DNA of 7,102 nt from NCBI GenBank assembly GCA_027016475.1, contig JALUTL010000450.1:1-7102 (forward strand). Reading direction: 5' to 3'. A program made the position numbers and the translations under genes. Under the pieces are notes generated by a model, which had not been told where the DNA came from, ran no database searches, and was given only the letters and a program-made list of their open reading frames with translations. How positions within the stretch are numbered: the first letter of the stretch is position 1; every line of letters starts with the position of its first letter. The DNA comes from Candidatus Heimdallarchaeota archaeon. Lineage in GTDB: Archaea > Asgardarchaeota > Heimdallarchaeia > Heimdallarchaeales > Kariarchaeaceae. Shown piece after piece: positions 135 to 2,554 of the stretch.

Positions 135-941
135 CTAACGGGAAAGTCTTAACGCTCGTTCTGGAGTTTCATATATGGGCAATTTTGCCCTTACATGATC
201 TGTCAGAAACTGAATGGCTGCCGCCCTTTCATCAGGAACGCCTCCCTTCATATACCTGTTTCGTGCAATGGCCAAGTTTTTCAGAAATTCAGAAGGTGAG
301 GGATCGATCCCATAATAGGAAGCTACAGCTCCAGGATTAAGTTCTTCTGCCTGCCCATATAAGATCATGGCGGCATAAATTGGATCCTTGAGCTTTGTAA
401 TTGAAGTAAGCCCCAATAGAATATGATGCTTTTCTGGCAGTTGAGCTGGAATAATTCCCGGTGAATCGAACATGTAAAGGCTATTGCTTACACGAATTTT
501 CTGCTCTCCTCTCGTTTTTCCAGGAATTGGTGCAACGCCTGCTGCTGACTTTCCACGGAGTGTATTGATCAAAGAGCTTTTTCCAGTATTGGGAAAGCCC
601 ACAACAGCAACAACTGCCGTTTTTCGTTTCGATGCACGCAAGAGAACCTGTCTAATGCGTGAGGTTCCCAACCGCTGAGTGGCAGAAAATCCTGCCGCAA
701 CCATCCCCCGCTCGTCAAACCAATCAAGCCATTGTTGAAGAAGGTCTCGGGGAATCAGATCAGTCTTGTTGATGCCAATTACCAAGTTGCAGTGATCCAA
801 TGAGTTAACGTACTCTTCCAGTCTTGAGCTTCGACAAATTGAGGGAAACCGTGCATCCACCACTTCCAAAACGACATCAGATCTATCCACGAGGCTATAC
901 ACTATCCCCCAGAATCGGTTCATTGACATGGTCAAATACAT
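135..941 (-). CDS. rbgA: Circularly permuted ribosome-biogenesis GTPase, YlqF/RbgA family (MMR1/HSR1-type, 50S/60S assembly GTPase)
   Basis: 268-aa ORF. The G motifs are in permuted order: G4 NKTD (GINKTDL), G5 SAT (FSATQ), G1 GFPNTGKSS, G2 PGKTRG, G3 DSPG. The N-terminal DVVLEVVDARFP and the C-terminal helical domain (RNRYMKGGVPDERAAAIQFLTD...G/KLP..ETPE) are typical of RbgA/YlqF. The start could be the ATG beginning at 941, 929 or 923 on the minus strand. Confidence 0.85.
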   Translation of the reverse strand: MYLTMSMNRFWGIVYSLVDRSDVVLEVVDARFPSICRSSRLEEYVNSLDHCNLVIGINKTDLIPRDLLQQWLDWFDERGMVAAGFSATQRLGTSRIRQVLLRASKRKTAVVAVVGFPNTGKSSLINTLRGKSAAGVAPIPGKTRGEQKIRVSNSLYMFDSPGIIPAQLPEKHHILLGLTSITKLKDPIYAAMILYGQAEELNPGAVASYYGIDPSPSEFLKNLAIARNRYMKGGVPDERAAAIQFLTDHVRAKLPIYETPERALRLSR

Positions 942-1100: not shown

Positions 1101-1114
1101 AAAACCACGAAAAA
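1101..1114 (-). terminator. T-runs ending the pre-5S transcript (T5 at 1114-1110, T4 at 1104-1101 on minus strand)
   Basis: The minus strand reads ...CCUGUCAGUUUUUCGUGGUUUUGAAC. These oligo-T tracts lie immediately 3' of the BHB/processing stem. I cannot tell which run is used. T5 lies between the inner and outer stems. Confidence 0.4.
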
Positions 1115-1120
1115 CTGACA

Positions 1121-1140
1121 GGTTACCCCATATCCAGGTT
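1121..1140 (-). other. BHB motif, trailer-side strand: h' AAC (1140-1138), H CUGG (1137-1134), 3-nt bulge AUA (1133-1131), h UGGGGUA(A)CC (1130-1121)
   Basis: Base pairing worked out by hand against 1250-1268. See the findings for the pair list. Confidence 0.7.
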
Positions 1141-1253
1141 CGGATGTTACTGGGTGCACACCAACCCTATGACCGTAATCGTGCTACAGCGTGACGCCTT
1201 TCCCGATTGCTCGCGCAAATCAGTACATGGGTCGTCCGGAGTTGGGCTTAACT
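1132..1253 (-). rRNA. rrf: 5S rRNA, circularly permuted gene (helix III 3' strand, II', V, loop E, IV and loop D encoded before helix I 5' strand, loop A, II, III and loop C)
   Basis: On the minus strand the order is as follows. GUUAAGCCCAAC at 1252-1241. Helix V GACG(A)CC 1236-1230 paired with GGCGUC 1198-1193. Loop E AUGUACUG...GGGAAA. Helix IV with a GCGA tetraloop at 1214-1211. Helix I as a hairpin, GCUGUAG 1190-1184 / UUACGGU 1178-1172, with loop CACGA. Loop A CAUAG at 1171-1167. Helix II GGGUUGG 1167-1161 paired with CCAACUC 1245-1239. Helix III CCAG 1153-1150 / CUGG 1137-1134 enclosing loop C UAACAUCCGAAC. The ends are defined by the predicted BHB cleavage sites, giving 122 nt. Confidence 0.8.
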
Positions 1254-1268
1254 CTCTGGTGGGGTACC
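1250..1268 (-). other. BHB motif, leader-side strand: h GGUACCCCA (1268-1260), H CCAG (1259-1256), 3-nt bulge AGA (1255-1253), h' GUU (1252-1250)
   Basis: Complementary to 1121-1140. The two 3-nt bulges lie on opposite strands and are separated by exactly 4 bp. Confidence 0.7.
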
Positions 1269-1310
1269 TTCAACCGTGGTTGTTGTACAATATCATCTAA
1301 AGCTGACAAG

Positions 1311-2095: not shown

Positions 2096-2554
2096 ATGGA
2101 TAACGCTTGGCCCATTGTGGTACTTCATAATGTCAATTCATCCAGCCGATGCACTGAATTTGTTCGAATAGCGACAGGTCTAGGATTCAAGACATTGGTT
2201 CTTTCACAAGCGCAGGGATCTGCGGCACAGAAAGGGATTCCTGCAGCTCAAAAGTACGCCTACAAGGAAAAGGCAAATTTTCTGGCTCTCTACTCCATTC
2301 AGGATGTTGTCGATTTGTTCAGTCCAGAGGAGTTGATATTAGTTGCCCCCCAACCATATGGAAAAGTGACTTTGGATGAAGAGTTCATACAAAATCTTTC
2401 CAATAAGAAATATGCGATTGTTTTTGGAGGGAATGATCCAGGGTTGACAAGAAAGGAGTTGGATATGGGCACATCCGTTCAGCTTCCGATTCCAGATATT
2501 GGATCAATAGGAACATTGGCGGTCACTTTGGCCAAAATTCGGCAATTGATCTGA
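2096..2554 (+). CDS. Small SPOUT / alpha-beta-knot superfamily-like protein (putative RNA methyltransferase fold; archaeal DUF-type), function unknown
   Basis: 152-aa ORF. The C-terminal half, YAIVFGGNDPGLTRKELDMGTSVQLPIPDIGSIGTLAVTLAKI, follows the SpoU/TrmH knot pattern (hhhG.e..Gl...l...d..v.IP....S....A..h). The N-terminal IVVLHNV...FVRIATGLGFKTLVL resembles SPOUT motif 1. The family assignment comes from motif pattern only. Confidence 0.5.
   Translation: MDNAWPIVVLHNVNSSSRCTEFVRIATGLGFKTLVLSQAQGSAAQKGIPAAQKYAYKEKANFLALYSIQDVVDLFSPEELILVAPQPYGKVTLDEEFIQNLSNKKYAIVFGGNDPGLTRKELDMGTSVQLPIPDIGSIGTLAVTLAKIRQLI

Follow-up and report, generated by a model that had tools for sequence, protein, structure and literature searches.

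The minus strand of a 7,102-nucleotide stretch of Asgard archaeal DNA (contig JALUTL010000450.1, hereafter the window) encodes a 5S ribosomal RNA back to front, with the two strands of helix I joined by a small hairpin and tRNA-intron-like cutting signals on both flanks. The mature 5S is probably a closed RNA circle made by the tRNA-splicing endonuclease (EndA) and the RtcB ligase; in the absence of RNA-level data we put the probability that such a circle is the final ribosomal form at about 0.6. We found no published description of this arrangement. Standard gene finders miss such a gene, which may explain why 5S genes have not been found in some Asgard genomes.

A permuted 5S rRNA gene with a capped helix I

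The gene is encoded in the order 3′ half, cap, 5′ half. The 3′ part (1253–1184) contains (A)GUUAAGCC on the loop B side, the helix II 3′ strand, helices V and IV with GUACUG...GGGAA, and the helix I 3′ strand. The 5′ part (1178–1132) contains the helix I 5′ strand, loop A (CAUAG), the helix II 5′ strand, the helix III 5′ strand CCAG (1153–1150), loop C with CCGAAC (1143–1138) and the helix III 3′ strand CUGG (1137–1134). Between the two parts, at 1190–1172, the seven pairs of helix I (G1190.U1172, C1189-G1173, U1188.G1174, G1187-C1175, U1186-A1176, A1185-U1177 and G1184.U1178; GCUGUAG with UUACGGU) enclose the loop CACGA (1183–1179), exactly as the sequence-only reading had placed them. The free, paired 5′ and 3′ ends of an ordinary 5S are thus absent here, as in every homologue. 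The hairpin alone is not more than chance: the window holds 92 hairpins of 7 bp (G.U allowed) with loops of 3–6 nt, against about 64 in shuffles, and its own energy, with three G.U pairs, is only −4.0 kcal/mol. It is the context, the conservation and the variation in the cap that make it real.

Rfam at its gathering score detects neither the window nor any of 18 homologous loci tested. The 5S model (RF00001) aligns only the 3′ part, at model positions 48–120 with 13.7–15.8 bits against a cut-off of 38, and the 5′ part alone is not scored, so Rfam cannot by itself certify the window. The cause is the permuted order rather than divergence. The motifs CAUAG, CCGAAC, UAAG and GUACUG...GGGAA are all present in the window and invariant in the alignment, and the 3′ part of one family member (L019) scores 25 bits (E = 9e-4) against RF00001 positions 50–120.

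A motif order that only a permuted gene can have (GTACTG-N16-GGGAA-N22-40-CATAG-N20-30-CCGAAC) found 23 genuine loci among 26 in the species-representative genomes and 14 among 17 in the metagenomes; the false positives of these scans are coding or unrelated sequence. The arrangement occurs in about 37 loci giving 31 distinct sequences, and nearly all named records are Asgard (Heimdall-, Jord-, Hel-, Njord- and Frey-archaeota). A covariance model built from 18 of these, excluding the window's clade, hits window positions 1260–1130 on the minus strand full length at 80.6 bits (E = 2.9e-18). Synteny through the neighbouring GTPase holds only for the closest relative (L002); two other loci carrying the GTPase gene (L003 and L004) have no permuted 5S within the 8–9 kb of sequence fetched around it.

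Helices I to V covary. After in silico splicing of 19 representatives, RNAalifold recovers helices II to V, with compensatory changes in 19 of 26 pairs. The seven pairs of helix I are 100% paired in 15 distinct homologues, with 26 cells changed on both sides; none of 500 shuffles reached this and all slid registers collapse. The register of each stem was taken from that sequence's own fold, so the 100% leans towards the structure and the slide control is the fairer test. The cap varies in sequence and length but is 3–6 nt in every homologue and a UNCG-type tetraloop in most lineages (UUCG, UACG, CUCG), which bears out the sequence-only reading that no spacer or re-opening motif is present. A dead, rearranged pseudogene or an assembly artefact with an incidental hairpin is very unlikely. 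The contig is short, Rfam does not call the gene, and one related record (L016, excluded from the analysis) looks like a collapsed assembly of two tandem copies; however, the same architecture occurs in independent assemblies from many samples and lineages, every helix shows compensatory changes, the locus has its own promoter-like and terminator-like signals, and an independent Logan assembly carries the same sequence over the whole gene and its flanks (about 290 nt). That the locus is a functional permuted 5S gene is close to certain, although with only 7.1 kb of the genome available a canonical 5S gene elsewhere cannot be excluded.

A bulge-helix-bulge motif in the flanks

The sequence-only reading missed the flanks. 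A TATA-like box (TTATATA, 1317–1311) lies about 29 nt upstream of a leader hairpin and about 43 nt upstream of the outer helix of a processing stem; in the homologues, A/T-rich TATA-like boxes lie 22–40 nt upstream of the outer helix. The leader hairpin (CAAC-CACG-GUUG, 1282–1271), whose role is unknown, is conserved in the window's clade (with a UACG loop in the relative L017) and forms in the unprompted minimum-energy fold. A run of five T (1114–1110), a likely transcription stop, follows the trailer strand, as T-runs do in most homologues, and a second run lies at 1104–1101. Both the promoter and the terminator functions are inferred. A further outer pairing, AACCACG (1280–1274) with CGUGGUU (1109–1103), lies beyond the first T-run and competes with the leader hairpin, and was not counted as part of the system.

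Leader and trailer form a bulge-helix-bulge motif, the substrate of the archaeal tRNA-splicing endonuclease. The outer helix, between AGGUACCCCA (1269–1260) and UGGGGUAACCU (1130–1120), has 7 contiguous bp plus 4 more after a 1-nt bulge. It is followed by the trailer bulge AUA (1133–1131), the 4-bp central helix of CCAG (1259–1256) with CUGG (1137–1134), the leader bulge AGA (1255–1253) and an inner helix of GUU (1252–1250) with AAC (1140–1138). Each bulge lies 3′ of its central-helix strand, as in the canonical tRNA intron at 37/38. The unprompted minimum-energy fold of the precursor forms the outer and central helices with the AUA bulge, although the whole precursor does not fold better than shuffles (z = −0.11), so thermodynamic stability is not an argument here.

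Across the family, the outer helix is 100% paired with very strong covariation and the central helix has 92% of cells paired (0 of 2000 shuffles as good). In all 19 representatives outside the AB_125-like clade, the motif with the longest outer helix (5–16 bp) has a 4-bp central helix and 3-nt bulges, although in six of the 19 the fourth pair of the central helix is G.A, A.A or A.C. In a free search over bulge sizes 0–7, 3 nt is the best trailer bulge in 18 of 19 representatives. The leader bulge is well delimited in the window by the 3-bp inner helix, but poorly delimited in several other lineages; the inner helix is weak across the family, with only 47% of cells paired, and in several lineages the motif therefore resembles the relaxed, bulge-helix-loop type. 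Cognate leader and trailer give such a motif in 19 of 19 cases, whereas non-cognate pairs do so in 5 of 318 and shuffled leaders in 5.4%.

Predicted maturation of the transcript

If cleavage follows the second nucleotide of each bulge, as would be expected of this enzyme, EndA would cut at 1254|1253 and 1132|1131; the length of the product does not depend on that rule. Ligation of the new ends would give a 122-nt circle (1253–1132) with the junction ...CCGAACCUGGAU|AGUUAAGCC..., which folds into the 5S Y-shape both as a circle and when opened at the cap. The CUGG element (1137–1134) pairs with the leader CCAG in the precursor and with the internal CCAG (1153–1150) in the excised RNA, and the two pairings are mutually exclusive. 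Loss of the leader would thus let CUGG switch partner and helix III form with a 3-nt bulge at the ligation point. This restores a near-canonical helix III strand, although the bulge is AUA instead of the usual two A. In the 19 representatives the predicted product has the canonical spacing CCGAAC-N8-YAAG (N9 in the window's clade). The cut point differs between lineages, with offsets from CCGAAC and from YAAG of −1/5, 0/4 and +1/3, so that their sum is constant. L002 and L017 carry two tandem copies with no T-run between them; each copy has its own, different outer helix, yet both give the same predicted product, and endonucleolytic release is therefore needed. We consider excision at the motif likely and ligation to a circle somewhat less so. 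A scan of metagenome contigs for a sequence running through the cap and across the predicted junction found nothing, but this is uninformative, as 120-nt circles rarely survive assembly.

The sequence-only reading had proposed a genuinely permuted 5S gene, a helix I closed by a short cap, and a mature RNA that is either a circle or a linear molecule with ends in the helix III bulge. All three claims hold up against the comparative data, and the two 3-nt bulges sit exactly at the helix III bulge, where cutting and ligating restores a near-canonical helix III strand, which favours the circle. A linear permuted 5S, either cut by EndA but left nicked in the helix III bulge or not cut at all, with the leader–trailer helix retained as a terminal stem in the role of helix I, is in our view unlikely. 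In its favour, in several lineages a TATA-like box lies about 22–25 nt upstream of the outer helix and a T-run follows it, so the primary transcript would already be a tidy molecule with paired ends; the helix III bulge tolerates natural insertions of up to 46 nt in some bacteria (PMC7812874); and brown-algal mitochondrial 5S is a stable linear permuted RNA (PMC4267664). However, a mere terminal stem needs neither two 3-nt bulges exactly 4 bp apart nor a leader segment that pairs with, and so blocks, the 3′ strand of helix III, both of which are conserved. The compensating shifts of the cut point have no meaning without ligation, tandem copies without a terminator between them need cutting, and RtcB circularizes excised introns and pre-rRNAs in archaea, including Asgard 16S and 23S.

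It is also possible, but in our view unlikely, that the circle is only an intermediate that another nuclease opens in or next to the cap loop (1183–1179), giving the ribosome a conventional linear 5S that needs no change to the ribosome. Permuted tRNA transcripts are circularized and then cut to recover the standard form (PMC10085705), and archaeal circular pre-16S and pre-23S RNAs are generally thought to be re-linearized (PMC12918454). Against this, the tight cap loops are stable closures rather than spacers, nothing around the cap is conserved in sequence apart from the helix itself, no RNase P or tRNase Z type signal is present, and opening the window's cap would leave only the weak 7-bp helix I to hold the ends together.

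Relation to known permuted and circular RNAs

5S rRNA is described as a universally linear, independently encoded ribosome component with its ends in helix I, and a recent survey states that archaeal 5S does not take part in the excision-and-circularization pathway used by 16S and 23S (PMC12918454). If our reading is right, this would be the first permuted, and probably circular, 5S rRNA of a cellular (non-organelle) ribosome. It would explain why no 5S gene could be found in closed Heimdallarchaeum genomes (PMC8813620), would give EndA and RtcB an essential role in making the large ribosomal subunit in the archaea closest to eukaryotes, and would provide a simple sequence marker for tracing when the arrangement arose relative to the origin of eukaryotes. 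More tentatively, many and perhaps most Asgard archaea, including the Heimdallarchaeia lineages nearest to eukaryotes, may build their ribosomes with a circular 5S from a gene whose permutation predates the split of the major Asgard lineages. If so, the linear 5S gene of eukaryotes would be a reversion or a re-copy from the circle, and the 'missing' Asgard 5S genes an annotation blind spot.

The permuted SRP RNA gene of Thermoproteus tenax and T. uzoniensis (PMC4731332) likewise encodes its 3′ part before its 5′ part, with leader and trailer forming a bulge-helix-bulge motif that EndA cuts to give, after joining of the ends, a stable, functional circular RNA, and there too the canonical gene had been reported missing. 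Here the RNA is a ribosome component, the arrangement is spread over many Asgard lineages rather than a few species of one genus, and cleavage and circularity, shown experimentally for the SRP RNA, are only predicted. Permuted tRNA genes (Cyanidioschyzon merolae and others; PMC4267664, PMC10085705) also have inverted halves and form a circle through a motif recognized by the splicing endonuclease, but their circles are re-opened at the native ends by RNase P and tRNase Z, whereas here the native ends are replaced by a 3–6 nt cap with no spacer or processing signal. Circular 23S rRNA in archaeal ribosomes and the post-transcriptionally permuted 23S rRNA of Pyrococcus and Thermococcus (PMC12918454, PMC7758197) are excised at such a motif and circularized, the circle or a re-opened permuted form being the ribosomal species, and circular 16S and 23S transcripts have been seen in Asgard archaea. 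Those genes are collinear with the canonical rRNA and the motif sits at the native ends, whereas here the gene itself is permuted and the motif sits inside helix III.

In the permuted mitochondrial 5S rRNA of brown algae (PMC4267664) the open helix I is likewise replaced by a closed hairpin, but the new ends lie at the three-way junction between domains alpha and gamma, the RNA stays linear, there are no flanking processing motifs, and the RNA is organellar and highly derived; here the break lies in the helix III bulge and the flanks carry a splicing-type motif. The remark in the sequence-only reading that engineered 5S with linked native ends functions in Escherichia coli is correct: a 4-nt connector was used and the ribosomes work (PMC7283268), although that man-made RNA was opened in loop C or loop D and fused into the 23S rRNA, and is neither free nor circular. 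Finally, the 5S expansion segments of Thermoanaerobacterium and others (PMC7812874) are rooted at the same conserved helix III bulge, at the top of the central protuberance and described as one of the least obstructed insertion sites. Those are insertions in ordinary linear 5S genes rather than permutation break points; the AB_125-like Heimdall clade may combine both features.

The helix I hairpin and the permuted gene

On the minus strand the window reads ...GGGAAAGGCGUCAC-GCUGUAG (1190-1184)-CACGA (1183-1179)-UUACGGU (1178-1172)-CAUAGGG..., and the seven base pairs proposed in the sequence-only reading are correct. A hairpin of this kind is not remarkable in itself; the window holds 92 hairpins of 7 bp with loops of 3-6 nt, compared with about 64 in shuffled sequence, and this one is worth only -4.0 kcal/mol. 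Its meaning comes from what it connects. Upstream lies (A)GUUAAGCC...GUACUG-N16-GGGAA, the 3' two-thirds of a 5S rRNA, to which the Rfam model RF00001 aligns its positions 48-120 at 13.7-15.8 bits, far below the gathering score of 38. Downstream lies CAUAG...CCGAAC-CUGG, the 5' third (loop A, helix II, helix III and loop C), which is not scored when presented alone. The gene is therefore circularly permuted, and the hairpin joins the two strands of helix I. Rfam at its gathering score reports nothing in the window.

The neighbouring genes encode an RbgA/Nug2-type GTPase, a cytidylyltransferase-like protein (Pfam CTP_transf_like), a DUF2122 protein and a P-type ATPase. The GTPase (135-941, minus strand), a circularly permuted member of the RbgA/YlqF/Nug2 family, lies directly downstream of the 5S gene on the same strand; this family consists of large-subunit assembly factors. 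Among its closest homologues, those that carry a name are from Heimdallarchaeota or Kariarchaeaceae MAGs. The closest relative with a contig (L002, 79% identical GTPase) has two tandem permuted 5S copies at the same place, whereas the linkage is not kept in the 8-9 kb stretches around the GTPase gene in two further contigs (L003 and L004). The DUF2122 protein (2096-2554, plus strand), which has a weak SpoU-methylase-like match, lies next to the cytidylyltransferase-like (possible PPAT) gene, and the same pair occurs in L002 and L003; no link to the 5S locus was seen.

An Asgard-type family of permuted 5S genes

A scan with a motif order that only a permuted gene can have found 26 loci in the species-representative genome collection and 17 in JGI metagenomes, of which 23 and 14, respectively, are genuine. 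The named records are Heimdallarchaeota (at least two clades), Jordarchaeia/Freyarchaeota, Helarchaeota, Njordarchaeota and unclassified Promethearchaeati (the Asgard kingdom). Two records labelled otherwise, L008 (Candidatus Deferrimicrobium) and L027 (Thermoproteota), carry sequences nearly identical to Asgard ones and are probably mis-binned. L008 is identical to the metagenome locus L032 over the gene and its flanks and resembles the Helarchaeota gene L015; the permuted 5S could serve as a marker for such errors. Rfam at its gathering score misses every permuted gene tested, namely the window and 18 of these loci. HMM-based tools may report partial hits, which may be why some Jordarchaeum MAGs are described as having a 5S gene (PMC9723677), whereas the authors of two closed Heimdallarchaeum genomes state that 5S genes 'could not be predicted' (PMC8813620).

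A covariance model built from 18 permuted genes, leaving out the window's clade, matches window 1130-1260 (minus strand) full length (80.6 bits, E = 2.9e-18). The 3' part of the Njord member L019 matches RF00001 positions 50-120 (25 bits, E = 9e-4) in a mode where none of the pairs to the missing half can score. After in-silico splicing (described below), 19 representatives align with all universal 5S motifs invariant, and RNAalifold recovers helices II, III, IV and V with compensatory changes in 19 of 26 pairs. Helix I is paired in 105 of 105 cells over 15 distinct sequences, with 26 cells changed on both sides; none of 500 shuffles reached this value and every slid register collapses. The register was taken from each sequence's own fold, which leans towards the structure. 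The cap that closes helix I is 3-6 nt everywhere and is a UNCG-type tetraloop in most lineages. These tight caps argue against the main rival to a mature circular RNA, in which the circle is re-opened at the cap, although without RNA data they cannot exclude it.

A bulge-helix-bulge motif formed by leader and trailer

The sequence-only reading did not notice the flanks of the gene. In the window the leader reads ...AGGUACCCCA-CCAG-AGA-GUUAAGCC... and the trailer reads ...CCGAAC-CUGG-AUA-UGGGGUAACCU... Together they form an outer helix (1269-1260 with 1130-1120), a 3-nt bulge on the trailer, a 4-bp helix (CCAG:CUGG) and a 3-nt bulge on the leader, followed by a 3-bp inner helix (GUU:AAC). Each bulge lies 3' of its central-helix strand, the topology of the bulge-helix-bulge motif of archaeal tRNA introns and rRNA processing stems, if the arrangement of the canonical 37/38 intron is taken as the reference (for the general definition see PMC4731332). 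The unprompted minimum-energy fold of the 182-nt precursor forms the outer and central helices with the AUA bulge. The leader hairpin CAAC-CACG-GUUG (1271-1282, minus strand) is conserved in the clade. Its bases AACCACG could alternatively pair with CGUGGUU (1103-1109, minus strand) beyond the first T-run, and in L002 and its fellow relative L017 a similar CAAC...GUUG element follows the last copy; this may be an outer, operon-level stem.

An automatic search for the motif was run on all 31 distinct sequences. In each of the 19 representatives outside the AB_125-like clade, the solution with the longest outer helix (5-16 bp) has this architecture, and in a free search over bulge sizes 0-7, with no constraint on the product, a 3-nt trailer bulge wins in 18 of 19. 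The outer helix differs completely in sequence between lineages but always pairs (100% paired; covariation 1.41, compared with 0.29 in shuffles). The central helix is 92% paired, whereas the inner helix is weak, at 47%. Cognate leader and trailer give a motif with at least 5 bp of outer helix in 19 of 19 cases; leaders combined with trailers of other clades do so in 5 of 318, and shuffled leaders in 5.4%.

The AB_125-like Heimdall clade (L007, L009, L011, L012, L023, L024, L025, L028, L030, L035, L036, L040 and L043; for example L012 1040-1240) carries an extra covarying hairpin (for example CAUUUGGA-UGCGU-UCCAAAUG; the loop is UGCGU or GGAAU) between the outer helix and the 5S body, and offers two alternative 4-bp partners for the trailer, UCAG:CUGA and CAGG/CGGG:CCUG. 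The best motif predicts a 151-153-nt circle that keeps a hairpin insertion of about 30 nt in the helix III bulge, although the hairpin may instead be removed in a second step.

Close relatives of the window have at least two tandem permuted 5S copies in one transcription unit (L002 3560-3975; L017 1270-1690), and in both assemblies the second copy is broken by a scaffold gap of Ns. There is no T-run between the copies. Each has its own outer helix (CUCCUA:UAGGAG and UGCUUUCU:AGAAAGCA), and both give the same predicted product; endonucleolytic release is required there. A third relative, L016 (3080-3215), combines the leader of copy 1 with the trailer of copy 2; its flanks do not pair, and it looks like a collapsed assembly. 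Each lineage has a TATA-like box upstream of the leader and, in most homologues, a T-run after the trailer.

Predicted circular product and known systems

Cutting in both bulges and joining the ends gives, in every lineage, CCGAAC-N8-YAAG (N9 in the window's clade), the canonical 5S spacing through the 3' strand of helix III and its bulge. With the junction marked by a slash, examples are ACGGA/AGUCAAG (Jord), ACGGAA/GCUAAG (Njord-like) and ACGGCAG/UUAAG (Hel); the window's clade gives CUGGAU/AGUUAAG. The cut point is not the same in all lineages. The central helix starts at -1, 0 or +1 relative to CCGAAC and the distance from the leader strand to YAAG is 5, 4 or 3 accordingly, so the sum is constant; product length does not depend on where exactly in the bulges the cut falls, as long as the cuts are symmetric. 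This compensation is what one expects of a splice junction and would not be predicted by a mere terminal stem. A second rival, a linear permuted molecule that is either unligated or uncut, does not explain the conserved motif geometry or the constant product. The predicted circles are 121-123 nt (129-134 nt in the Njord-like group). That of the window is 122 nt (1253 to 1132) and folds into the 5S Y-shape. In the precursor the leader CCAG occupies CUGG, the 3' strand of helix III; after excision the internal CCAG (1153-1150) can take over, and we infer that excision is also a folding switch.

The proposal from sequence alone, that helix I of a permuted 5S is closed by a short loop and that the mature RNA is either a circle or a linear molecule with its ends in the helix III bulge, is thus supported. 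In the absence of direct RNA evidence, the best explanation (probability roughly 0.6) is a permuted 5S gene whose transcript is excised at a bulge-helix-bulge motif and ligated into a circular 5S rRNA that keeps its helix I cap. A scan of metagenome contigs for the predicted junction was negative, a result that is uninformative, and it could not be shown that these genomes lack a canonical 5S gene, beyond the published statement for Heimdallarchaeum.

No description of a permuted or circular archaeal 5S rRNA was found in the literature searched, which did not extend to subscription-only papers. A 2023 list of natural RNA permutations names only the organellar 5S case (PMC10085705). A 2026 paper states that 5S does not take part in rRNA circularization; the same paper shows circular 16S and 23S transcripts in Asgard archaea and circular 23S rRNA in ribosomes (PMC12918454). 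Engineered Escherichia coli 5S with its native ends joined by a 4-nt connector is functional (PMC7283268), and the helix III bulge is one of the least obstructed sites of 5S (PMC7812874). The closest analogue is the permuted SRP RNA of Thermoproteus, which is cut by EndA at a leader/trailer bulge-helix-bulge motif and functions as a circle (PMC4731332).
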